From Polaromonas sp. (lineage in GTDB: Bacteria; Pseudomonadota; Gammaproteobacteria; Burkholderiales; Burkholderiaceae_C): DNA of 64,000 nt. Numbering within the stretch: the stretch's first letter is position 1; the number at the start of each line of letters is the position of its first letter. Shown piece by piece: positions 11,796 to 24,328 of this stretch. The stretch lies in the NCBI RefSeq assembly GCF_036676035.1, contig NZ_JAKFDR010000057.1, forward strand, positions 1,572 through 65,571, in the 5' to 3' direction. A program made the translations under genes and the position numbers. The notes under the pieces are model-generated. The model did no database searches and was not told where the DNA came from. It was given only the letters and a program-made list of their open reading frames with translations.

Positions 11796-12281
11796 GGGTC
11801 ACCTCCTTGGAGTGCACGTTCCGAGCTTGGCTCCGTGCTCCGGAAAGTAAAGCCTGTCTCGGACCTTGAGTTGCACAATAAGCTGTAGATGGCAGCGGAA
11901 TCTCGTTTGTCCAGGAAGGCGTTAACAGCCCTTGGCCAACGGCAATGACGACTGCCAAGTCCAAGTAATACAGGGGCTATAAAACACAGATAGTAAAGGG
12001 GTTGCGGAAGCCCGTCATCCCCTAAGTTGAGGTGAAGGCTGCGGCCGGGAGCGCCCTTGGGCGCGCCGCCGCCGGACGCAGCCTTTTACTCATAAGTCCG
12101 TAATTTGGGCGACGTTTTTGCATGGCTTCGACACGGTCAGCCAAGTCGCGCTTCCGCGCAACGCACCATGCCTGGCGCACCACAAGAAATGGGCGCCACA
12201 GGGGTGCCCATTTCCGTACCTAATTGGCTCGTCAGGCCGAACCGGTCTGAATACACCCGGTGGTTGGGCTCAGACCGGCAC

Positions 12282-12794
12282 TCAATCCAGCCACTTGTGC
12301 TGAAACCGGGCCTGCCCCATGGCCGGGTCCAGCTGGTAGTTGGCAAAGCCCACACGCTCGTACAAGCGGATGGCGCTGGCATTGCCGGCCAGCACCTCCA
12401 GCGTGAGCTTGCAAGCCCCGCGCTCGCGGGCGATCTGCTCCACCAGCGCCAGCATCTGCTCGCCGACCCGCTGGCCGCGGTGGCTGGCCAGCACCACCAC
12501 GTCGTGCACATTGACCAAGGGGCGGCAGGCAAAGGTGGAGAAACCTTCAATGCAATTGATCAGCCCCACAGGCTGGGCACCGTCGAAGGCCAGCACGCTA
12601 AAGGCCTGCGGCCGGGCGGCCAGCGCACTCGCCAGGTGGGTCTTGGCAAACTCGCTCAACGGCTCGCCGCCGCCGGCCGGGTCGCGGGCATAGGCATCGA
12701 GCAGGCTGACCAGCGCCGCCGCGTGCAGCGAATTGCCGTAGTCGGCCCGGCAGATGTGAAGTGATGGGGAGGTCGATGCGGAGACAGTTGTCAT
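12282..12794 (-). CDS. GNAT family acetyltransferase
   Basis: LVNVHDVVVLASHRGQRVG, LTLEVLAGNASAIRLYERVGF. Confidence 0.85.
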   Translation of the reverse strand: MTTVSASTSPSLHICRADYGNSLHAAALVSLLDAYARDPAGGGEPLSEFAKTHLASALAARPQAFSVLAFDGAQPVGLINCIEGFSTFACRPLVNVHDVVVLASHRGQRVGEQMLALVEQIARERGACKLTLEVLAGNASAIRLYERVGFANYQLDPAMGQARFQHKWLD

Positions 12795-12819: not shown

Positions 12820-13821
12820 TTATGACGGCGTCTTGCCGCGCCTTGCCGACTTGGGTTTGGGCTTGGGCTTGTCCTGGCGGTGAATAACGGACAGGAAAAA
12901 CCGGGACGCGTCACTGGCAGGCCGGTCCTTGCGTGTGATGGAGCCAAACGATTCCATCTTGTGCCGGATATGGCAGGGCAAGACCTTGAGCAGGCCGTGC
13001 CGGGCATAGCTGTCGGCAATCGATCGGGGCATCACCGCGATCATGTCGGTCTTGTCGATCAGATCGGTGGTGGTCAGTATGGAGGCCGTTTCGATCAGGC
13101 CCTTGGGCGCTGGCACCTGCAGCATGCGGAACTCCTGGTCCAGCACCTCGCGCATCGGGCTGCCCACCGGCTGCAAAATCCACGGGTAGCGCAGCAGGCT
13201 GGAAAAAGCCACCGAGGCCTGCCGGCATAAGGGGTGGTGCACGCCCACCACTACCGCCAGCGCTTCGTTTTCCAGCGGGGTAAAGCTGTAGTCCTGCCGG
13301 TGCTCGTCGCGGATGCGGCCAATCGCCACGTCCAGCGCGCCCTCGCGCAGCAGTTCCAGCAGGCGGTCGCTGGTGTCCATGGTGATGTCGACCGACAGCA
13401 GGGGATAGGCCTGCTTGAGCGCAATGATGGCGCTGGTCAGCAGCGTCGGCGACGGCGCCATGATGGTACCTACTGAGAGCCGCCCGGAGCTGCCCAGCTG
13501 CAATTCGGCCAGCTCGCGCGTCATCGACTCCACCGAGCCGCGCATGCCGCGAAAGTAGCCCAGCACGCTGTTGCCTGCGGCCGTCAGGCGCTGGCCGCGC
13601 CCCACCCGCTCAAACAGGCGTTGGCCGAGCGCCGATTCCAGCTCCTGGATCATCTTGGTGGCCGCCGGCTGCGTCATGCCCAGCTCGGCAGACGCCTTGC
13701 GCAAGGTGCCATGCTCCCCCACGGCCAGCATCAGGGCCACCTGCCGCATGCGCAGGCGGTTGAGCAATTGGGGGATCGGGTTGGGGGTGTTCATGGTGGA
13801 GCTCAGCGTGGGTGCGGACAT
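12820..13821 (-). CDS. LysR family regulator (divergent from the catabolic operon)
   Basis: GTLRKASAELGMTQPAATKMIQELE HTH; substrate-binding domain. Confidence 0.92.
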   Translation of the reverse strand: MSAPTLSSTMNTPNPIPQLLNRLRMRQVALMLAVGEHGTLRKASAELGMTQPAATKMIQELESALGQRLFERVGRGQRLTAAGNSVLGYFRGMRGSVESMTRELAELQLGSSGRLSVGTIMAPSPTLLTSAIIALKQAYPLLSVDITMDTSDRLLELLREGALDVAIGRIRDEHRQDYSFTPLENEALAVVVGVHHPLCRQASVAFSSLLRYPWILQPVGSPMREVLDQEFRMLQVPAPKGLIETASILTTTDLIDKTDMIAVMPRSIADSYARHGLLKVLPCHIRHKMESFGSITRKDRPASDASRFFLSVIHRQDKPKPKPKSARRGKTPS

Positions 13822-13967
13822 TCGGTGTGTGAATTTCCGGGAATTCAAATGATAACTACTGATTATCAAACAATCATGCATTTTCAATTTACGTTAACAG
13901 TCCGGATCCTTACCATCAAGCCATTCCCGAGTTCACCCCTGAGTTCATAAAAGCTGGAGACAAACCC

Positions 13968-14930
13968 ATGAAACTATTGCCTACCCTGATGCTGGCCGCC
14001 TGCGCGCTGGCCTGCCAGACCCATGTTGCCGCACAGGATTGGCCGGCCAAACCGGTGCGCATTCTGGTCGGCTCGGCCCCCGGCGGCGGGACCGACGCCA
14101 TGGCCCGTGCCGTGGCGGACCGGCTGGGCCCCCTGCTCAAGCAGCCCGTGGTGGTGGAAAACCGTCCGGGCGTATCCAACACGCTGGCCGCCGACGTGAC
14201 GGCCAAAGCCACCGACGGCCACACCATGGTGATGGGCGTTTCCACCGCGCACGCGATTGCGCCGCACCTGCTCAAGCTCGGCTACGACAACAACAAGGAC
14301 CTGGTGCCGGTGGTGTTTGTCGGCGCCGTGCCCAATGTGCTGGTGGTCAACAACGCGCTGCCGGTGGATTCGGTGCAGTCCCTGATCAAGCTGGCCAAGA
14401 GCCAGCCCGGCAAGCTCAATTACGCCACCAGCGGCGCCGGCAGCACCCAGCACATCGCGGCCGAGCTGTTCAAAGACCAGGCCGGCGTGTTCATCACGCA
14501 CATCCCTTACCGCGGCAGCGGCCCGGCTCTGGTCGACCTGGTCGGCGGCCAGGTGCAGCTGAGCTTTGACACCATGCCCTCGGTGATTGGCCAGATCAAA
14601 AACGGCCGCATCAAGGCATTGGCCGTGGCTGCTGCCCGCCGCAACCCCCAGTTGCCCGATGTCCCCACCATGGCCGAAGCCGGCCTCAAGGGCGTGGAAA
14701 TGAGCGCCTGGTACGGCATCTACATGCCGGCTTCCACACCGAAAGCCGTGCAGGAGCGCGTTTACACCGAAGTCACCAAAGTGCTGGCCATGCCAGAGAC
14801 GCAAACCCGCCTGAGCGCCATCGGCGCCGACCTCACGCCCATGACGCCGGCCCAGTTCGCGCAGTTTCACACGGCTGAAAACAAACGCTATAGCGACCTG
14901 ATCGCCAAGAAAAACATCAAACTGGATTGA
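13968..14930 (+). CDS. Bug/TctC tripartite tricarboxylate transporter substrate-binding protein
   Basis: Signal peptide; WPAKPVRILV, PGGGTD, VENRPG, HIPYRGSGPALVDL, PDVPT. Confidence 0.93.
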   Translation: MKLLPTLMLAACALACQTHVAAQDWPAKPVRILVGSAPGGGTDAMARAVADRLGPLLKQPVVVENRPGVSNTLAADVTAKATDGHTMVMGVSTAHAIAPHLLKLGYDNNKDLVPVVFVGAVPNVLVVNNALPVDSVQSLIKLAKSQPGKLNYATSGAGSTQHIAAELFKDQAGVFITHIPYRGSGPALVDLVGGQVQLSFDTMPSVIGQIKNGRIKALAVAAARRNPQLPDVPTMAEAGLKGVEMSAWYGIYMPASTPKAVQERVYTEVTKVLAMPETQTRLSAIGADLTPMTPAQFAQFHTAENKRYSDLIAKKNIKLD

Positions 14931-14935
14931 TTCCC

Positions 14936-15955
14936 ATGAGCAAGCAGCAGACACCAGTCATTGCCCTGACACTGGGCGACGCAGCAGGCATAGGCCCGGA
15001 GCTGATCGCCCGGTTGCTGAGCCAGCCCGGCATTACGGCCAGTGCCAACATCGTACTGGTGGGCGACCCCTGGCTCTGGCAGGACGGTCAGGCCATTGCC
15101 AAACTCACCGTGCCCACGCAGGCCGTTGCCAGCCTGGCCGAGGTGCGAAAACGCCCCGACCAGCGCCTGCCCGCCTTTCTTGCCGTGGACACTATTCGCC
15201 CGGAACAGGTGCAGCGCAGCCAGGCGCAGGCCGCTTGCGGCAGTGCGGTGCTGCAGGTGCTTGACCTGTGCATGGACGGCGCCAAGCGCGACGAGGTCGA
15301 TGCCATCTGTTTTGCGCCACTGAACAAACAGGCGATGAAGCTGGGCGGCCTGAAGCACGAAGACGAGCTGCACCACTTTGCCGAATACCTGGGCGTCACC
15401 GGCTACTTCTGCGAGTTCAACACGCTTGGCGACTTGTGGACCTCGCGCGTGTCCTCGCACATTCCGCTCAAGGATGCCGCCGCCGCCCTGTCCAAAGAGC
15501 GCATCGTGGACGCGGCACGGCTGATCTACCAGTCGCTGCAGGCCAGCGGTACCGCCAGCCCCACAGTGGCGATCGCGGCCTTCAACCCGCATGGCGGTGA
15601 CGGAGGCATGTGCGGGCGCGAGGAGATCGACATCATCGAGCCGGCCGTGCGCGAACTGCGCGCCAGCGGTGTTCCGGTCGATGGCCCCTTCCCTGCCGAC
15701 ACGATTTTCCTCAAGGCGCGAGACGGCCAGTACCAGGCCATCGTCACCATGTACCACGACCAGGGCCAGATCGCGATCAAGCTCATGGGTTTTTCCAAAG
15801 GCGTCACGGTACAGGGCGGCCTGCCACTGCCCATCACCACGCCGGCCCACGGCACGGCCTATGACATTGCCGGCCAGGGCCTGGCCGACGTCAACGCCAC
15901 CCTCAACGCATTTCGCATCGCTTGCCGCATGGGTGCGGCACGCCTTCATTCTTAA
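14936..15955 (+). CDS. PdxA-family decarboxylating dehydrogenase (atypical)
   Basis: LGDAAGIGPE, APLNK, SHIPLKD, FNPHGGDGG, GPFPADT, MYHDQGQI, TPAHGTAYDIAGQG. Confidence 0.85.
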   Translation: MSKQQTPVIALTLGDAAGIGPELIARLLSQPGITASANIVLVGDPWLWQDGQAIAKLTVPTQAVASLAEVRKRPDQRLPAFLAVDTIRPEQVQRSQAQAACGSAVLQVLDLCMDGAKRDEVDAICFAPLNKQAMKLGGLKHEDELHHFAEYLGVTGYFCEFNTLGDLWTSRVSSHIPLKDAAAALSKERIVDAARLIYQSLQASGTASPTVAIAAFNPHGGDGGMCGREEIDIIEPAVRELRASGVPVDGPFPADTIFLKARDGQYQAIVTMYHDQGQIAIKLMGFSKGVTVQGGLPLPITTPAHGTAYDIAGQGLADVNATLNAFRIACRMGAARLHS

Positions 15956-15967
15956 AAGGACGACACC

Positions 15968-17140
15968 ATGAAAATCAAATCAGTTCGCGCACGCGTGTTC
16001 GAGTGGAAAGGCAAGACCGTTCCACCCCAAGGCAACTTCTGCTCCAACGCCATGGACTTGCTCTACTCCAAAAAAGAGACCATGAGCACCTTTCGCTTTC
16101 ACAGCTGGACGGTGGTGGAAATTGAAACCGACGACGGCATCATCGGCCTGGGCAACGTGGCGCTGGCGCCCGCCATCGCCAAAGCCATCATCGACCAGTA
16201 CCTCACGCCGCTGGTGCTGGGCCAGGACCCCTGGGACTACGAATACCTGTGGCAGCGCATGTACCGCGCCACCCACGCCTGGGGCCGCAAGGGCGTGACC
16301 ATGGCGGCGATCTCGGCAATTGACCTGGCGATCTGGGACATCCTGGGCAAGTCGGTGGGCAAGCCGGTGTTCAAGCTGCTGGGCGGGCGTACCAAGGAAA
16401 AGATTCCCTGCTATTACTCCAAGCTCTACCGCACCGACCTGAAGGAAATGCAGGCCGAGGCCGAGAAGTTTTTGAACCAGGGCTTCACCGCCTTCAAGAT
16501 GCGCTTTGGCTACGGCCCGGCCCACCTGCAAAAGGGCGTGACGGAGAACCTGAAGTCGGTGGAGGCCATCCGCGAAGTCATCGGCTACGACAAGGACCTG
16601 ATGCTCGAGTGCTACATGGGCTGGAACCTGGAATACGCCAAGCGCATTTGCCCCAAGCTGGAGAAGTTCGAACCGCGCTGGCTTGAAGAACCCGTGATCG
16701 CCGACGACATCGATGGTTACGCCGAGCTGAATCAGCTCACCAGCATCCCGATCTCGGGCGGCGAGCACGAGTTTTCGCTCTACGGTTTCAAACAGCTGCT
16801 CGATAAAAAGGCGGTGTCGGTGGTGCAGTACGACACCAACCGTGTCGGTGGCATCACGGCGGCGCACAAGATCAATGCCCTGTGCGAGGCCTACAGCGTG
16901 CCGGTGATCCCGCACGCGGGCCAGATGCACAACTACCACCTGACCATGAGCACGCTGGCCTCGCCGATGAGCGAGTACTTTCCGATGTTTGACGTGGAAG
17001 TCGGCAACGAGCTCTTCTATTACATCTTTGACGGCGAACCCGTGGCCGAAAACGGCTTTGTGCAGCTCGACGACAACAAACCCGGCCTGGGCTTGAGCCT
17101 CAAGACCGAGTTCCTCAAAGACTTCAACATCATTGAGTGA
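15968..17140 (+). CDS. enolase-superfamily (MR/MLE) sugar-acid dehydratase, L-rhamnonate/L-lyxonate dehydratase-like
   Basis: [38 protein letters not shown]; exact substrate not determinable. Confidence 0.85.
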
Positions 17141-17145
17141 GCAGC

Positions 17146-18063
17146 ATGGCAGCCAGGTACAAGGGCGTATTTCCGGTGGTGCCCACCACCTTCAACGACG
17201 CGGGCGAGCTCGACCTCGAAAGCCAGAAGCGCTGCGTCGATTTCATGATCGACGCGGGCTCGACCGGCCTGTGCATTCTGGCGAATTTTTCCGAGCAGTT
17301 TTTGCTGTCGGATGACGAACGCGAAACGCTTACGCAAACCATCCTGAAGCACGTGGCGGGCCGGGTGCCGGTGATCGTCACCACCACGCACTTTGGCACG
17401 CGGGTCTGCACCGAGCGCAGCCGCCGCGCACAGGATGCCGGCGCGGCCATGGTGATGGTGATGCCGCCCTACCACGGCGCCACCCTGCGAGCGAGCGAGG
17501 AGAAGATTTACGAGTTCTACGCCGCGCTGTCAAACGCCATCGACATCCCCATCATGATCCAGGATGCCCCCATGAGCGGCACGACGCTGCCTGCGGCCTT
17601 CCTGGCGCGCATGGCCAAGGAGATCAAGCAGGTTTCCTATTTCAAGATCGAAACCGCCGGTGCGGCTTCCAAGCTGCGCGAGCTGATTCGCCTGGGCGGC
17701 GACGCGATTGAAGGCCCGTGGGACGGCGAAGAAGCCATCACCCTGCTGCCCGACCTGGACGCTGGCGCCACAGGCGCCATGACCGGCGGAGGCTACCCCG
17801 ACGGCATACGCCGCATCGTTGATGCCTATGCCGCAGGCCGCCGTGAAGAAGCGGTAGCGGAGTACACACGCTGGCTACCACTGATCAATTACGAAAACCG
17901 CCAGGGCGGCATCCTCACCGCCAAGGCGCTGATGAAGGAAGGAGGAATCATCGCCTGCGAAGCCCCGCGCCACCCGTTTCCCGCCATGCACCCCGAGGTG
18001 CGCAAAGGCCTGATCGAAACCGCCCAGCGGCTTGACCCCATGGTCTTGCGCTGGGGTAAATAG
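17146..18063 (+). CDS. DHDPS-family L-2-keto-3-deoxyarabonate (L-KDA) dehydratase-like
   Basis: GVFPVVPTTF, LCILANFSEQF, YFKIET, GPWDGEEAITL; as I recall it, close to the Azospirillum L-KDA dehydratase. Confidence 0.82.
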   Translation: MAARYKGVFPVVPTTFNDAGELDLESQKRCVDFMIDAGSTGLCILANFSEQFLLSDDERETLTQTILKHVAGRVPVIVTTTHFGTRVCTERSRRAQDAGAAMVMVMPPYHGATLRASEEKIYEFYAALSNAIDIPIMIQDAPMSGTTLPAAFLARMAKEIKQVSYFKIETAGAASKLRELIRLGGDAIEGPWDGEEAITLLPDLDAGATGAMTGGGYPDGIRRIVDAYAAGRREEAVAEYTRWLPLINYENRQGGILTAKALMKEGGIIACEAPRHPFPAMHPEVRKGLIETAQRLDPMVLRWGK

Positions 18064-18108: not shown

Positions 18109-19092
18109 ATGAAAACCCGTTCCTTTCTCAAACTCGCTTTTTCCGCAGCAGTGCTTGCATCAGCCCTGAGCGCCAACGCCCAAACCACCAAAATCCGCTT
18201 TGCCCATGCCGGGCCGGAAACGGCGTCACAGCATCTGGCCGCGCTGGAATTTGCCAAACTCGTCAAGGACCGCAGCAAGGGGCAATTAGAGGTTCAGGTC
18301 TACCCGGGCAGCCAGCTGGGTAATGACTCGACCGTTTTGGGCGCTGTGCGCGGCGGCACCATCGACATGATGATGGCCGGCAGCGGCAACTTCTCGGGCA
18401 TGGCCTCGCATTTCGAGGTGCTCGACATTCCATTTTTGTTCCGTAACCCGGCCCACGCCTATGCCACGGTGGACGGTGCTGTCGGCCAGGGCCTGATGAA
18501 AGAGCTGGAAGGCAACGGCCTGAAGCAACTGGCGTTTTGGGAAGTGGGCTTTCGCTCCATCACCACCAAGAATCGCCCGGTCAGAACGCCTGCGGACGTG
18601 AAAGGTCTGAAGATCCGCACCATGGGCAACCCGGTGCATATCCAGGCCTGGAAGCTGCTGGGCACCAACCCGATTCCCATGCCTTTGGGCGAGCTGTACC
18701 AGGCACTGGAATCTGGCGCGGTGGACGCGCAGGAGCATCCGGTGGACATCACTTATGCGGCCAAGTTCTATGAAGTGCAAAAGCACCTCACGCTGACCAA
18801 ACACGCCTTTACGGCAATGCCGGTGGTCATCAACAAGGCAAAGTTTGACGGTTTCACCCCGGATCAGAAAAAGGCCTTGCTGTCCGCGGCCAGCGACTCC
18901 AAGCTTTTCCAGCGCAACCTGAATCAAAAGAACGAGGCAGGAATCATCGCGGACATGCGCAAGCAAGGCATGACGGTGATCGACACGTTTGATCCCGCGC
19001 CTTTCAAGGCACTGGTGGGCGAAGAAGTGCGCAAGTCTTACGTCGCCAAGAACGGCCCGGAGCTGCTGGTCGCGGTGGACGCCATCAAGTAA
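18109..19092 (+). CDS. dctP: TRAP transporter substrate-binding protein
   Basis: Signal peptide; GGTIDM, VGFR, DVKGLKIR, GELYQALESGAVDAQEHP. Confidence 0.92.
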   Translation: MKTRSFLKLAFSAAVLASALSANAQTTKIRFAHAGPETASQHLAALEFAKLVKDRSKGQLEVQVYPGSQLGNDSTVLGAVRGGTIDMMMAGSGNFSGMASHFEVLDIPFLFRNPAHAYATVDGAVGQGLMKELEGNGLKQLAFWEVGFRSITTKNRPVRTPADVKGLKIRTMGNPVHIQAWKLLGTNPIPMPLGELYQALESGAVDAQEHPVDITYAAKFYEVQKHLTLTKHAFTAMPVVINKAKFDGFTPDQKKALLSAASDSKLFQRNLNQKNEAGIIADMRKQGMTVIDTFDPAPFKALVGEEVRKSYVAKNGPELLVAVDAIK

Positions 19093-19113
19093 GCAGTGCG
19101 CCTGGAACCCATC

Positions 19114-19617
19114 ATGAAACTTCATTTTCTTGAGCGCGCCATCGAGTGGTTTCTCATCTCGCTGCTGGGTGTGATGATCGTGCTGGTGTTCGGTAACGTC
19201 GTCCTGCGCTACGTTTTCAACTCAGGCATCGTTTTTTCTGAAGAGGTGTCGCGCTTTGTCTTCATGTGGCTCACGCTGATAGGCGCTCTGCTGGTCATGA
19301 AAGAGAATGCCCACCTGGGCATGTCCAGCCTGGTGGACCGCCTGGGCGAGAAGGGCCAGCGCGTTTGCCGCTTTCTGGCAGACGCGCTGACGATGGCCTG
19401 CTGCGCGCTGCTGGCCCATGGCACCTGGAAACAGGTCGTCCTTGGCATGGACAACCGTTCGCCGGTGACCGATGTGCCTTTGGGACTGGTGTACCTCTGC
19501 CTGCTGATCAGCAGTGTGGGCATGGCTTGCGTGCTGGCCTGGTCGCTGTGGCGGCAGGTCACCGGGCAGATGTCCCGCGAAGAGCTGGTGTCACAGGGCA
19601 GCAGTGCCGGCGAATAA
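19114..19617 (+). CDS. dctQ: TRAP small permease
   Basis: GNVVLRYVFN, SEEVSR, four TM helices. Confidence 0.9.
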   Translation: MKLHFLERAIEWFLISLLGVMIVLVFGNVVLRYVFNSGIVFSEEVSRFVFMWLTLIGALLVMKENAHLGMSSLVDRLGEKGQRVCRFLADALTMACCALLAHGTWKQVVLGMDNRSPVTDVPLGLVYLCLLISSVGMACVLAWSLWRQVTGQMSREELVSQGSSAGE

Positions 19618-19633
19618 CAATCAAAGACAAATC

Positions 19634-20911
19634 ATGACAATCGCCATATTCCTGGCTGCCCTGCTGGGCGCCATGGCCCTCGGCATGCCCATCGCATTCG
19701 CCCTGCTGGCCTGCGGTGTAGCGCTGATGCTGCATCTCAACACTTTCGACACCCAGATCCTCGCGCAGAACCTGCTCGAAGGGGTCAACAACTACCCGCT
19801 GATGGCGGTGCCTTTCTTCATGCTGGCCGGTGAGCTGATGAACGCCGGCGGCCTGTCGCGGCGCATCGTTCACGTGGCCGACTCGCTGATCGGCCACGTG
19901 CGCGGCGGCCTGGGCTATGTCGCCATCATCGCCTGCGTGGTCGTGGCCAGCATCTCCGGCTCGGCCGTGGCCGACACCGCCGCCGTGGCCGCCCTGCTGA
20001 TACCGATGATGCGCAACGCGGGCTACAACGTGCCGCGCGCAGCGGGCCTGATCGCGGCCGGCGGCATCATTGCGCCGGTGGTCCCGCCGTCCATCGCGTT
20101 CGTGATATTCGGCGTCGCGGCCCAGATCTCGATCACCAAGCTGTTCCTGGCCGGAATATTTCCCGGCCTCATGATGGCGATCGCCCTGGCCGTGACCTGG
20201 GGACTATGCGCCCGCAAGGAGGCCCTGGTCACGCGCCGCAAGTTCGACCTGCGCCAGCTCCTTCGGGCGCTGGTCGATGGGGTCTGGGCCCTGGCCTTGC
20301 CGCTGGTCATCATAGGCGGGATGAAGGTCGGCGTGTTTACGCCCACCGAAGCGGCCGTGGTCGCCGTGGTTTATTCGCTGCTGGTGGGCTTGCTGGTCTA
20401 CCGCGAGCTCAAGCTTTCATGGTTGCCTGAGCTGATGCTCGCCGCGGCCAAGACCTCCAGCACGGTGATGTTCCTCGTGGCCTGCGCGCTGGTGTCGGCC
20501 TGGCTCATCACCATCGCGGATATTCCGGCACAGGCCACGGCGCTGCTGACGCCCTTCATGGAGAACCCAAAGCTCTTGATGTTCATGATCATGATCCTGG
20601 TCATCGTGGTCGGCACCGCGCTGGACCTGATGCCCACCGTGCTGATCCTCACGCCCATCCTGATGCCCGTGATCCGTCAGGCCGGCATAGACCCCGTCTA
20701 TTTCGGCGTGATGTTCATCATGAACAACGCGATTGGCCTGCTGACGCCGCCGGTAGGCACGGTGCTCAACGTCGTGGCCGGGGTGGCCAAAACCAACCTG
20801 GACAACGTGATCAAGGGGGTTTGGCCCTTCCTTCTGGCACAGACGGCATTGCTGTTCCTGTTTGTGCTGTTCCCGCAGCTGGTGATGGTGCCAGCGGCCT
20901 GGTTCCGCTGA
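19634..20911 (+). CDS. dctM: TRAP large permease
   Basis: AVPFFMLAGELMNAGG, ISGSAVAD, PPSI, FTPTEAA, LTPPVG. Confidence 0.93.
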   Translation: MTIAIFLAALLGAMALGMPIAFALLACGVALMLHLNTFDTQILAQNLLEGVNNYPLMAVPFFMLAGELMNAGGLSRRIVHVADSLIGHVRGGLGYVAIIACVVVASISGSAVADTAAVAALLIPMMRNAGYNVPRAAGLIAAGGIIAPVVPPSIAFVIFGVAAQISITKLFLAGIFPGLMMAIALAVTWGLCARKEALVTRRKFDLRQLLRALVDGVWALALPLVIIGGMKVGVFTPTEAAVVAVVYSLLVGLLVYRELKLSWLPELMLAAAKTSSTVMFLVACALVSAWLITIADIPAQATALLTPFMENPKLLMFMIMILVIVVGTALDLMPTVLILTPILMPVIRQAGIDPVYFGVMFIMNNAIGLLTPPVGTVLNVVAGVAKTNLDNVIKGVWPFLLAQTALLFLFVLFPQLVMVPAAWFR

Positions 20912-20953: not shown

Positions 20954-21898
20954 ATGTCTCTTCAGGAAACACTCTTGCTGGTGCAGAAATGCGCCCACAC
21001 CTTCAGCTTCTACGACCTGGCCACCGGCCAGGCTGAAAAGCACATCGTGCTGCCCAACTTTCCGCACGAGTTCACGGTAGACCCGGTGCGCCGGCGCGCC
21101 TATGTGGGCCACTACGGCATCGAGACCGCCAGCCACCTGGGCGACGCGGGCGGGCACTCCGTCTTCGTGATCGATCTGGACCGACGTGAACATGTGGCCA
21201 CGCTCAACATCTGGCCTTTCTATCGCCCGCATGGCCTGACGGTGGACGCCGAAGGCCGCCTGTACGTGATGTCGGAGGCGCACAACACGCTGCTGCGTTT
21301 CTCGGACCCGGTCAACCGCCATGTGCCCGACCTGGCCGTGCCCTCAGGCGGCTACAAGACTCATTTGTTCGCATTGACGAAGGATGCGCAGACAGCCTAT
21401 GCCCTCAACCTGCTGTCGAACACGGTCACCAAAATCAAACCGAATGACCCGACCTTCACACCGGTGGCCATGGTGCCGGGCCCGGTGCCTGAGGGCAATG
21501 TGCTGTCGGCGGATGAGTCGCTGCTGTATGTGGCCAACCGGGGCGACGACACCATCGTCGCCGTCGACACGACCAGCATGAAAGTCGTCGCGTCGGGCAA
21601 GACGCGGCGCGACCCGAACCGGGTCTACCGCTTCCGCAGCGCGCAGGGCCAGGACCTGCTGCTGACCACCAATTCCGGCGAGCATTCGCTGTCGGTGTTC
21701 GGCACCGATCTGCAAGAGCAGCGCTGCTTTGCCCTGCCCAGCAATCCGCTGGCGCTGTCCTTCCATCCGGTGGACCGTGCGGTCTACATCTCGTTCCAGG
21801 ACGAGACGGTACGTCGCCTCAACCTCGACAGTTTCGAGTTCGAGCAAGCGATCAAGACCCTGCGCGAACCCGATTCTTCCTACGTGTGGCAACACTGA
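20954..21898 (+). CDS. YVTN/YncE-like beta-propeller protein without a signal peptide
   Basis: Repeated blades (FPHEFTVD, RPHGLTVD, VPEGNVLS..LYVANRGDDTI, NPLALSF); no N-terminal hydrophobic stretch. Confidence 0.7.
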   Translation: MSLQETLLLVQKCAHTFSFYDLATGQAEKHIVLPNFPHEFTVDPVRRRAYVGHYGIETASHLGDAGGHSVFVIDLDRREHVATLNIWPFYRPHGLTVDAEGRLYVMSEAHNTLLRFSDPVNRHVPDLAVPSGGYKTHLFALTKDAQTAYALNLLSNTVTKIKPNDPTFTPVAMVPGPVPEGNVLSADESLLYVANRGDDTIVAVDTTSMKVVASGKTRRDPNRVYRFRSAQGQDLLLTTNSGEHSLSVFGTDLQEQRCFALPSNPLALSFHPVDRAVYISFQDETVRRLNLDSFEFEQAIKTLREPDSSYVWQH

Positions 21899-21929
21899 GG
21901 TTCACCCAAACCCTGCCCGAGTACCTTCA

Positions 21930-22883
21930 GTGAATCCTTCGCCCACCCCCCCAAATGTCCTGTCCGTGGTGGACGCGCACCATCATCTGTGGGACTTGTC
22001 GCGCGGCCGCTACCCGTGGCTGCAGCAAGCGTACAACCCGCAGGAATTCTTTCTGGGCGACTATGCTGCGTTGTGCCGGGACTTCTTGCCCGCAGACTAC
22101 CGCGCGGCAAGCGCGGGTGTTCAAGTGTTGGCAACGGTACACGTCGAGGCCGAGCGTGACCGTAGCGAGCAGGTGCTTGAGACCGCCTGGCTGCATGAGA
22201 TGAGCGCCTCGCATGGTTTTCCCAATGCCGTGGTGGCGCATGCCTGGTTCGACAGGCCCGATACGGAGGAGTGTCTGCTCAGCCATCTGCGCTATCCGCT
22301 GGTACGGGGTATCCGCAGCAAGCCGGTGACATCGGCAACGCCAGGGCAAACCGTGGCGGGGCAGCCAGGCAGCATGCAGGACGAGGCCTGGCTGCGCGGC
22401 TTTTCGCTGCTGCAAAAATACGGGTTGAGCTGGGACATGCGCGTACCCGCCTGGCACTTGCCCGAAGCGGCCCAGGTCGCGGCCATGTTTCCGCTGGTGC
22501 CCATGGTGCTCAACCACCACGGCTTTGCCTGGGACCGCAGTGAAGAAGGCCTCCGGCGCTGGCGTGGCTGGATGGGAACACTCGCACGCCAGCCGAATGT
22601 GCATGTGAAGCTCTCCGAATTCGGCCTGCGCGACCAACCCTGGAACTGGGAGGAGAACGCCCGCATCGTGCGCGACACGCTGGCCATCTTCGGCTGGCAG
22701 CGCTGCATGTTCGCCAGCAACTTTCCGGTGGCGCGCCTGCGTATCGGCTTTCAACCCCTGGTAGAGGCTATCTGGCGTATGCTGGATGGTCTCACCCACG
22801 ATCAGCAACAGGCCGTGATGAGCGGCAATGCACTGCGCTTTTACCGCATTGATCTTCCACCCACTTCAGACGTGAATATATGA
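21930..22883 (+). CDS. amidohydrolase-2 family, sugar lactonase-like
   Basis: VDAHHHLW, MVLNHHG, VKLSE, MFASNFP; ATGA overlap with the ALDH. Confidence 0.8.
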   Translation: MNPSPTPPNVLSVVDAHHHLWDLSRGRYPWLQQAYNPQEFFLGDYAALCRDFLPADYRAASAGVQVLATVHVEAERDRSEQVLETAWLHEMSASHGFPNAVVAHAWFDRPDTEECLLSHLRYPLVRGIRSKPVTSATPGQTVAGQPGSMQDEAWLRGFSLLQKYGLSWDMRVPAWHLPEAAQVAAMFPLVPMVLNHHGFAWDRSEEGLRRWRGWMGTLARQPNVHVKLSEFGLRDQPWNWEENARIVRDTLAIFGWQRCMFASNFPVARLRIGFQPLVEAIWRMLDGLTHDQQQAVMSGNALRFYRIDLPPTSDVNI

Positions 22884-24328
22884 CCACCTTCAACAACCTT
22901 ATCAACGGCCAATGGCTGGCGGCCAGCAGCACCAGCGCCAACCTCAACCCGTCGGACCTGTCCGATGTGATTGGCCAGTATGCCCAGGCCGATGCGGCAA
23001 CACTCGATGCCGCTGTACAGGCTGCGCAGGCGGCTTTTCCCGCCTGGTCCTCCGCCGGCATTCAGGCCCGTTCGGATGCACTCGACAAGATAGGCACCGA
23101 AATCCTGGCCCGCAAGGAAGAGCTGGGCACGCTGCTGTCCCGCGAAGAAGGCAAGACCAAGCCGGAAGGCATTGGCGAAGCCACCCGCGCCGGCCATATC
23201 TTCAAGTTCTTTGCCGGCGAGTGCCTGCGCCTGTCGGGCGAAACCCTGCCCTCCGTGCGCCCGAATATCGGCGTGGAAATCACCCGCGAGCCGGTAGGCG
23301 TGGTGGGCCTGATCACGCCCTGGAATTTCCCGATCGCGATTCCGGCCTGGAAGATTGCGCCGGCGCTGGCCTTTGGCAACTGCGTGGTGTTAAAGCCGGC
23401 CGATCTGGTGCCGGGCAGCGCCTGGGCCCTGGCCGAGATCATCTCGCGCTCTGGTATTCCGGCCGGCGTTTTCAACCTGGTCATGGGGCCGGGCCGGGTC
23501 ATCGGTGATGCGCTGGTCAATCACCCGGGCATCAATGCCATCAGCTTCACCGGCTCGGTCGGGGTGGGTGGGCGCATTGCGCTGGCCTGCGCCAAAAACC
23601 TGAAGAAGGTGCAGCTCGAAATGGGCGGCAAAAACCCGCAAGTCATTCTGGACGATGCGGACCTGGCCCGGGCGGTGGAACTGAGCACACAAAGCGCGTT
23701 TTACTCCACCGGCCAGCGCTGCACCGCGTCCAGCCGGTTGATCGTGACCGAAGGCATCTACCCGGCCTTTGTCAAAGCCCTGCAGGAGCGCATGGCCCGC
23801 ATCAAGGTCGGTGATGCGCTGACCGCCGGCACCGACATCGGCCCGGTGTCCTCACAAGCGCAACTCGAGCAGGACCTGAGCTACCTTGAAATCGGCAAGG
23901 CCGAGGGTGCGACGCTGGCCATGGGCGGCGAACGCGTCAAGTGCCACACCGGCAGCAGCGCCGAAGGCTACTTCATGGCCCCGGCGCTGTTCAGCGAGAG
24001 CACCGCCACCATGCGTATCAACCGCGAAGAAATCTTTGGCCCGGTGGCCAGCATCATCCGCGTCAAGGACTACGAAGCCGCGCTGGCCACCGCCAACGAC
24101 ACGCCGTTTGGCCTGTCCGCCGGCATTGCCACCACCAGCCTGAAATACGCCACACATTTCAAACGGCACAGCCAGGCCGGCATGGTCATGGTGAACCTGC
24201 CCACCGCCGGGGTCGACTACCACGTGCCATTTGGTGGGCGCAAGGGCTCCAGCTACGGACCGCGCGAACAGGGCAAGTATGCGCAGGAGTTTTTCACGAC
24301 GGTCAAAACCGCCTACACGCTGGCTTGA
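22880..24328 (+). CDS. aldehyde dehydrogenase, alpha-ketoglutaric semialdehyde dehydrogenase-like
   Basis: TPWNFP, FTGS, LEMGGKNP, GQRCTA, EEIFGP, PFGGRKGS. Confidence 0.88.
   Translation: MTTFNNLINGQWLAASSTSANLNPSDLSDVIGQYAQADAATLDAAVQAAQAAFPAWSSAGIQARSDALDKIGTEILARKEELGTLLSREEGKTKPEGIGEATRAGHIFKFFAGECLRLSGETLPSVRPNIGVEITREPVGVVGLITPWNFPIAIPAWKIAPALAFGNCVVLKPADLVPGSAWALAEIISRSGIPAGVFNLVMGPGRVIGDALVNHPGINAISFTGSVGVGGRIALACAKNLKKVQLEMGGKNPQVILDDADLARAVELSTQSAFYSTGQRCTASSRLIVTEGIYPAFVKALQERMARIKVGDALTAGTDIGPVSSQAQLEQDLSYLEIGKAEGATLAMGGERVKCHTGSSAEGYFMAPALFSESTATMRINREEIFGPVASIIRVKDYEAALATANDTPFGLSAGIATTSLKYATHFKRHSQAGMVMVNLPTAGVDYHVPFGGRKGSSYGPREQGKYAQEFFTTVKTAYTLA

Follow-up and report, generated by a model that had tools for sequence, protein, structure and literature searches.

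A LyxD-linked PdxA-family gene of Polaromonas as a probable 2-carboxy-L-lyxonate decarboxylase without the GHT motif

The PdxA family (PF04166) includes several described enzymes with which the Polaromonas protein considered here can be compared. Escherichia coli PdxA (b0052; PDB 1ps6, 1ps7, 1ptm) oxidizes a beta-hydroxy acid and then decarboxylates it, and the Polaromonas protein has the same fold, dimer-type metal site and NAD motif and is predicted to use the same chemistry. The two are only 31% identical, however, and G135-H136-T137-E138, R292 and S294 of E. coli PdxA are all replaced in the Polaromonas protein, which in contrast to PdxA is predicted to act on a non-phosphorylated substrate, probably yields no net NADH and is encoded in a non-housekeeping context. 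PdxA2, the D-threonate/D-erythronate 4-phosphate dehydrogenase (2hi1, 6e85), is similar in having a catabolic role for acid sugars, but it keeps both the GHT motif and the arginine and needs a DUF1537 kinase partner, which the Polaromonas cluster does not have. TphB, the terephthalate 1,2-cis-dihydrodiol dehydrogenase (4aty), is a PdxA-family member with a non-phosphorylated dicarboxylate substrate and is encoded beside a TctC-family binding protein; it differs in being a more distant match, in the aromatic origin of its substrate and in having a dioxygenase in its operon. The D-apionate oxidoisomerase ApnO was considered as a precedent for a non-phosphorylated substrate in the PdxA family and was ruled out, as it is a KARI-like protein and not a member of PF04166 (PMC13753588). 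The initial annotation of the Polaromonas gene, made from the DNA sequence, gave the known activities of the family as those of PdxA, PdxA2 and TphB, a list that left out the decarboxylation of 2-carboxy-L-lyxonate.

That activity reportedly belongs to bacterial ascorbate catabolism. According to Stack et al. 2020, ascorbate in Ralstonia eutropha (Cupriavidus necator) H16 is oxidized by a cytochrome b561-family enzyme, after which a gluconolactonase-family enzyme reportedly opens the ring to give 2,3-diketo-L-gulonate (DKG). The next step, a benzilic-acid rearrangement to 2-carboxy-L-lyxonolactone, is said to be carried out by a protein whose predicted fold is WD40-like, and an amidohydrolase reportedly hydrolyzes this lactone. 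A PdxA-family member is then said to decarboxylate 2-carboxy-L-lyxonate to L-lyxonate in a novel reaction, using NAD+ catalytically; the L-lyxonate reportedly feeds the LyxD pathway, and the whole route is said to be present in hundreds of bacteria, Pseudomonas aeruginosa included. Papers that cite this ascorbate pathway study (J Am Chem Soc 142:1657) attest that it exists and that its route passes through the COG4948 L-lyxonate dehydratase. Plant chemistry includes the same intermediates: hydrolysis of dehydroascorbate gives DKG, which yields 2-carboxy-L-lyxono/xylonolactone and the free dicarboxylate, and loss of CO2 then leads to L-lyxonate and L-xylonate (PMC11066805).

The window, that is, the whole stretch of DNA that was analyzed, is 64,000 nucleotides of a Polaromonas sp. 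genome (GCF_036676035.1, contig NZ_JAKFDR010000057.1, positions 1,572 to 65,571). Its PdxA-like gene lies within a run of same-strand genes beside a divergent LysR gene, with close spacing at the junctions examined. The genes are the following.

12820..13887, minus strand: LysR-family regulator, divergent (PF00126 and PF03466; HTH from residue 47)
13968..14930, plus strand: Bug/TctC-family periplasmic solute-binding protein (PF03401, 224 bits)
14936..15955, plus strand: PdxA-like gene (PF04166), predicted NAD+-dependent 2-carboxy-L-lyxonate decarboxylase, with D143-E144-L145 in place of GHT and I300 in place of R292
15968..17140, plus strand: L-lyxonate dehydratase LyxD, mandelate-racemase subgroup of the enolase superfamily (PF13378, PF02746)
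17137..18063, plus strand: DHDPS-family enzyme (PF00701), with a 4-nt overlap with the LyxD stop
18109..19092, plus strand: TRAP solute-binding subunit DctP (PF03480, TIGR00787)
19096..19617, plus strand: TRAP small permease DctQ (top NCBIfam match YiaM, of the 2,3-diketo-L-gulonate transporter, below cut-off)
19634..20911, plus strand: TRAP large permease DctM (top NCBIfam match YiaN, 538 bits; cut-off 800)
20954..21898, plus strand: beta-propeller protein, 314 aa (weak NHL, YncE and lactonase-propeller matches only)
21900..22883, plus strand: amidohydrolase-2 family lactonase (PF04909; top NCBIfam match L-fucono-1,5-lactonase, below cut-off)
22880..24328, plus strand: aldehyde dehydrogenase (PF00171; top NCBIfam match the alpha-ketoglutarate semialdehyde dehydrogenase GucD, 518 bits, below cut-off)

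The real start of the LysR gene is probably about 40 codons inside the open reading frame, and the DctM start was set at the ATG at 19634. We also note that the start codon of the amidohydrolase-2 gene is uncertain, its frame being open from 21729. LyxD starts 12 nt downstream of the PdxA-like gene and has full-length matches to PDB 3stp, 3ssz and 3sqs (E from 3e-189 for 3stp to 4e-187); 3stp is reported to be the L-lyxonate dehydratase of Labrenzia aggregata of Ghasempur et al. 2014. The DHDPS-family gene presumably encodes a 2-keto-3-deoxy-L-lyxonate dehydratase and the aldehyde dehydrogenase gene an alpha-ketoglutarate semialdehyde dehydrogenase (KGSADH). The propeller protein presumably rearranges 2,3-diketo-L-gulonate to 2-carboxy-L-lyxonolactone, the amidohydrolase-2 protein is presumed to be the 2-carboxy-L-lyxonolactonase, and the Bug/TctC protein presumably binds a carboxylate intermediate from the same pathway. 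None of the 11 operon genes encodes a Rieske/ring-hydroxylating dioxygenase or any other aromatic-pathway protein.

The PdxA-like reading frame (14936-15955, plus strand) is stop-free and encodes 339 aa, and its ATG is 5 nt past the stop of the Bug/TctC gene. Its product belongs to the PdxA family, with a score of 286 bits against the PF04166 profile, but it reaches the curated cut-off of none of the NCBIfam equivalog models for PdxA and PdxA2. Its TIGR00557 score, for instance, is 257.6 where 290.35 is required, and its NF002891 score is 197 where 583 is required. The best PDB sequence matches are PdxA2 structures (2hi1, 6e85; E 4e-54), and TphB (4aty) is a weaker match than PdxA and PdxA2, at rank 10 with E 9e-33. 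All close homologues are nevertheless named 4-hydroxythreonine-4-phosphate dehydrogenase PdxA by NCBI and JGI. A literature search gave no describing paper for PDB 8zhy, 8zi8 and 8zj7, which are labelled PdxA.

The motifs quoted in the initial annotation (APLNK, LKHEDELHHF, SHIPL, NPH, MYHDQG and HGTA) are all found in the translation, and its central observation, that the segment after APLNK does not contain GHT, is borne out by the alignments. DEL lies under the GHT of 2hi1, 6e85 and 4jqp in the HMMER alignments and likewise in a MAFFT alignment of 196 sequences that comprised E. coli PdxA, the second PdxA of the Polaromonas genome, 80 loci taken from species-representative genomes, and 50% cluster representatives; no GHT-equivalent occurs anywhere else in the window protein in these alignments. 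When the columns of the canonical rows (38) were compared with those of the window's group (79 rows), the following separated the groups (E. coli to window numbering): T118 to F126, G135 to D143, H136 to E144, T137 to L145, E138 to H146, T285 to Q293, R292 to I300, S294 to T302 and S313 to A321. The aspartate-glutamate pair at the G135/H136 columns is present in all 79 relatives, with eight more clade-specific replacements alongside it, R292 to I300 and S294 to T302 among them, so the motif change is not a chance one. D296 is also replaced by alanine, as it is in most rows.

The loss of the arginine goes together with the loss of GHT. It had been missed in the initial annotation and makes the GHT observation stronger than it was first stated. 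The HMMER alignments place PLPITT of the window protein under PFIRTS of the PdxA2 structures 2hi1, 6e85 and 4jqp. H136 of E. coli PdxA forms a hydrogen bond to the substrate 4HTP (PMC10471632). The metal histidines (H175, H219 and H274, equivalent to E. coli H166, H211 and H266), D255, D275, K131 and the N-terminal G14-D15-x-x-G18-x-G20 motif are invariant in both alignment groups; the metal and NAD motifs are thus intact, as had been proposed. Judged by these residues, the protein has kept the catalytic machinery of PdxA and has lost the residues that hold a phosphorylated substrate.

Relatives of the PdxA-like gene were surveyed at 158 loci, 133 of which have at least 3 kb on each side. A LyxD gene with 55% identity or more to that of the window is present within 3 kb at 111 of these 133 loci, and a DHDPS-family gene, conserved beside LyxD, at 59; TctC (56/133) and amidohydrolase-2 (49/133) genes are found within the same distance, and a LysR homologue occurs in 102 of the 133. 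The taxa represented include Comamonadaceae, Achromobacter, Burkholderia/Paraburkholderia, Cupriavidus, Pseudomonas, Halomonas and Roseobacter-group alphaproteobacteria. The PdxA-like gene is co-inherited with enzymes that act before and after 2-carboxy-L-lyxonate in the pathway. Among 120 other genera of the window's own family, 15 have a relative that is 70-82% identical and always in single copy, and a more distant second copy (47%) was present in just one genome of this search; this distribution is that of a patchy accessory operon.

Among the 146 family members placed in a FastTree tree, all non-GHT proteins form one clade (112 rows; support 98, starred), separate from PdxA and PdxA2. Because the 150 tree representatives were those that match the query best, the share of non-GHT proteins in the tree is greater than their share in the whole family. 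Within the tree, a clade of 38 rows (support 92, not starred) has aspartate-glutamate throughout and holds both the window's subclade (21 rows; support 99, starred), with members of the Comamonadaceae, Achromobacter, Paraburkholderia, Halomonas type, and a Cupriavidus/Pseudomonas subclade (12 rows; support 96, starred).

The Polaromonas operon was compared with a genome of Cupriavidus necator; as the C. necator loci are GC-rich, genes were called there with a GC3-minus-GC2 filter. The best C. necator match to the window protein is 53% identical and lies in the gene order LysR, TctC, PdxA-like, LyxD, with DHDPS and aldehyde dehydrogenase genes divergently upstream. The sole other match is partial and 38% identical, and is presumably the housekeeping gene. 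A homologue of the propeller protein (59% identity) is on a different contig from the PdxA-like locus and is directly followed by genes for a cytochrome b561-like membrane protein, a GntP permease and an SMP30/gluconolactonase-family protein; the cytochrome b561-like and gluconolactonase families are those reported for the ascorbate pathway of Stack et al. 2020. Homologues of the amidohydrolase-2 protein are 52-55% identical. The two systems therefore share the PF04166 fold with D-E-L, I and A at the GHT, R292 and D296 columns, the TctC-PdxA-LyxD order, and the co-occurrence of propeller, amidohydrolase lactonase, DHDPS-family dehydratase and KGSADH. They differ in that the proteins, at about 53% identity, fall in sister subclades, in that the Polaromonas genes all lie together in a single operon that includes a TRAP transporter, and in that two components are missing from the Polaromonas genome: the cytochrome b561 oxidase, for whose gene a search gave no homologue, and the lactonase of the gluconolactonase family, for which it gave only weak homologues.

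Contig C11 of the Polaromonas genome carries another PF04166 gene, which is canonical and retains both GHT and the arginine. The sole PF07005 (DUF1537 kinase) match of the genome is on contig C114, unlinked to the cluster, and no PF07005 gene is present in the cluster itself, in agreement with the initial annotation.

By analogy with the ascorbate pathway reported by Stack et al. 2020, and from the matching gene set, synteny and tree, we conclude with a probability of about 0.8 that the gene encodes a PdxA-family 2-carboxy-L-lyxonate decarboxylase of bacterial L-ascorbate/2,3-diketo-L-gulonate catabolism, both substrate and reaction being predicted from sequence and gene context. DKG or a later product of vitamin C breakdown would be imported, likely by the YiaMNO-like TRAP transporter, the Bug protein or both. 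The propeller protein would convert DKG to 2-carboxy-L-lyxonolactone, and the amidohydrolase-2 lactonase would open the lactone. The PdxA-like enzyme, with bound NAD+ and its three-histidine metal site, would then oxidize the C3 hydroxyl; the resulting beta-keto acid would lose one of the two C2 carboxylates, and the ketone would be reduced again by the NADH to give L-lyxonate with zero net redox change. LyxD, the DHDPS-family dehydratase and the aldehyde dehydrogenase would finally take L-lyxonate to 2-oxoglutarate. In such an active site the hydroxyls of the substrate would lie at the position of the phosphate in PdxA and PdxA2, which would account for the replacement of GHT and R292 by D-E-L and isoleucine; D143, E144, H146 and Q293 may bind the polyol tail there.

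A mechanistic precedent is the tartrate dehydrogenase/decarboxylase of Pseudomonas putida, which carries out the NAD+-dependent, redox-neutral conversion of meso-tartrate to D-glycerate and CO2; it belongs to a different family of the same superfamily, that of the isocitrate/isopropylmalate dehydrogenases. A redox-neutral conversion of a linear hexarate to L-lyxonate was considered as well and is ruled out by stereochemical reasoning, as galactarate, D-glucarate, D-mannarate and L-idarate would yield D-arabinonate, D-lyxonate or D-xylonate and not L-lyxonate. The absence of a cytochrome b561-like homologue and the weakness of the gluconolactonase matches in the Polaromonas genome, together with the YiaMNO-like TRAP and Bug genes of the operon, make DKG, or an intermediate further along the pathway, a more likely import substrate than ascorbate.

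These results bear on the proposal, made in the initial annotation, of a new decarboxylating dehydrogenase for an unphosphorylated sugar acid. An unphosphorylated acid sugar is very probably the substrate, and both the GHT loss and the missing kinase point that way. An NAD+-using decarboxylase is likewise very probable, but a net dehydrogenase is improbable given the catalytic use of NAD+ in the reported pathway. Nor does the enzyme appear to be new: it is a member of the LyxD-linked clade of the PdxA family, whose activity was reportedly described in 2020.

The window's clade could be a diverged sister of the Cupriavidus/Pseudomonas clade, its members being decarboxylating NAD+ enzymes, possibly with a net oxidative reaction, for another unphosphorylated dicarboxylic sugar acid that feeds LyxD. 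The identity of only 50-54% between the clades is compatible with this idea, as are the support values, which are high for each clade alone and only 92 for their union, and the fact that the Polaromonas operon encodes Bug and TRAP uptake systems of its own and is without the ascorbate oxidase and dehydroascorbate lactonase. Both clades, however, share all of the clade-specific pocket residues (D, E, L/H, I/V, T and A) and the same neighbors (LyxD, DHDPS, propeller and amidohydrolase-2), and the relatives in the 15 of 120 genera, with 70-82% identity and single copies apart from the one genome with an extra 47% copy, look like orthologues rather than specialized paralogues. We consider such a diverged sister unlikely. 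It is quite improbable, too, in more general terms, that the window's clade is not isofunctional with the Cupriavidus/Pseudomonas clade, whether through another non-phosphorylated dicarboxylic sugar acid delivered by the Bug protein or through another stereochemical or redox outcome; if it were so, the operon would represent a separate way of reaching L-lyxonate.

A role like that of PdxA or PdxA2, the oxidative decarboxylation of a 4-phosphorylated C4 acid with other residues binding the phosphate and a kinase encoded elsewhere, would fit the name that the databases all give to the protein, 4-hydroxythreonine-4-phosphate dehydrogenase, and the presence of one DUF1537 kinase in the genome. That kinase is on a different contig, however, a canonical PdxA with GHT and the arginine is encoded elsewhere in the genome, and the window protein has two acidic residues and an isoleucine at the GHT and R292 positions and scores under every NCBIfam PdxA and PdxA2 cut-off; with conserved neighbors that handle non-phosphorylated acid sugars, a phosphorylated substrate is very unlikely. 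The match to 4aty (E 9e-33) suggests a TphB-like dehydrogenase that would act on an aromatic cis-dihydrodiol dicarboxylate supplied through the neighboring Bug protein, as happens in tph operons. That match is weaker than those to PdxA and PdxA2, however, the operon contains neither a ring-hydroxylating dioxygenase nor any further gene of an aromatic pathway, and it is LyxD to which the linkage is conserved, all of which makes this reading extremely improbable. A 2-carboxy-L-lyxonate decarboxylase is thus the function that we prefer.

Most likely, then, the product of the reading frame is not a vitamin B6 enzyme: the odd motif is real, the enzyme class is already known and the database name is wrong. 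The gene is a typical component of an operon with a wide distribution and neither settles nor raises an open question, and its main value is for annotation, as close homologues are called PdxA though they fall under all curated cut-offs and are without GHT and the arginine. A simple sequence rule, aspartate-glutamate at the GHT columns with isoleucine or valine at the R292 column, sets the LyxD-linked clade apart from true PdxA and PdxA2 and would explain the lost phosphate site. For Polaromonas itself, the operon suggests that the organism scavenges breakdown products of vitamin C, such as 2,3-diketo-L-gulonate, and not ascorbate itself.

The operon carries a TRAP transporter as well as the TctC-family binding protein (Bug), and it therefore encodes two binding-protein-dependent uptake systems. 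The former is located as follows:

18109-20911, TRAP transporter, whose membrane subunits have YiaM and YiaN as their top NCBIfam matches

YiaM and YiaN are subunits of the 2,3-diketo-L-gulonate transporter. The YiaN model scores 538 bits against the TRAP membrane subunit (cut-off 800), and these matches fit with import of a vitamin C breakdown product. A search of the whole Polaromonas genome (93% complete) found no homologue of the cytochrome b561-like gene of C. necator, and in the same genome the gluconolactonase-family homologues are weak (34-38%). The Polaromonas pathway seems to start downstream of ascorbate oxidation and ring opening.

The Polaromonas genome (G000) also has one, and only one, DUF1537 gene:

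G000:C114:22738-23421 (L083), DUF1537 (PF07005) acid-sugar kinase

This kinase has no PdxA2-type partner, because the genome contains only two PF04166 genes, the housekeeping copy and the gene studied here (14936-15955).

Among the sampled PF04166 relatives, one well-supported clade (98*) in the tree is devoid of GHT. At the columns of E. coli PdxA GHT and R292 its members display many further signatures, for example S-E-x/I, D-G-x/T and G-Q-T/R, and to our knowledge no function has been assigned to the majority of them. All close homologues of the query protein (P0003-P0122) are labelled "4-hydroxythreonine-4-phosphate dehydrogenase PdxA" by both NCBI and JGI, even though the query scores below every NCBIfam equivalog cut-off; none of the models retrieved for it from NCBIfam release 20 is specific to its clade. 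We also note a recent PDB series of 316-336 aa proteins named "4-hydroxythreonine-4-phosphate dehydrogenase" (8zhy, 8zi8, 8zin, 8zj0, 8zj3, 8zj5 and 8zj7), which match the query at E 3e-28, more weakly than TphB does, and for which a literature search found no publication. Separately, a candidate ORF of 219 aa, flanked by the Sel1-repeat and LysR genes, gave no match in Pfam or NCBIfam searches:

12105-12764 (+), candidate ORF

In C. necator (G001), paralogues of the window's beta-propeller and amidohydrolase-2 genes occur at three loci:

C105:187906-188814, propeller and/or amidohydrolase-2 paralogue locus
C177:13563-16844, propeller/amidohydrolase-2 paralogue locus
C94:43565-53219, propeller and/or amidohydrolase-2 paralogue locus

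There are two propeller paralogues (59% and 45% identity to the window's propeller) and three amidohydrolase-2 paralogues, one of which has a TAG stop inside it; one propeller and one amidohydrolase are paired on contig C177. This may point to a second, related pathway in C. necator.
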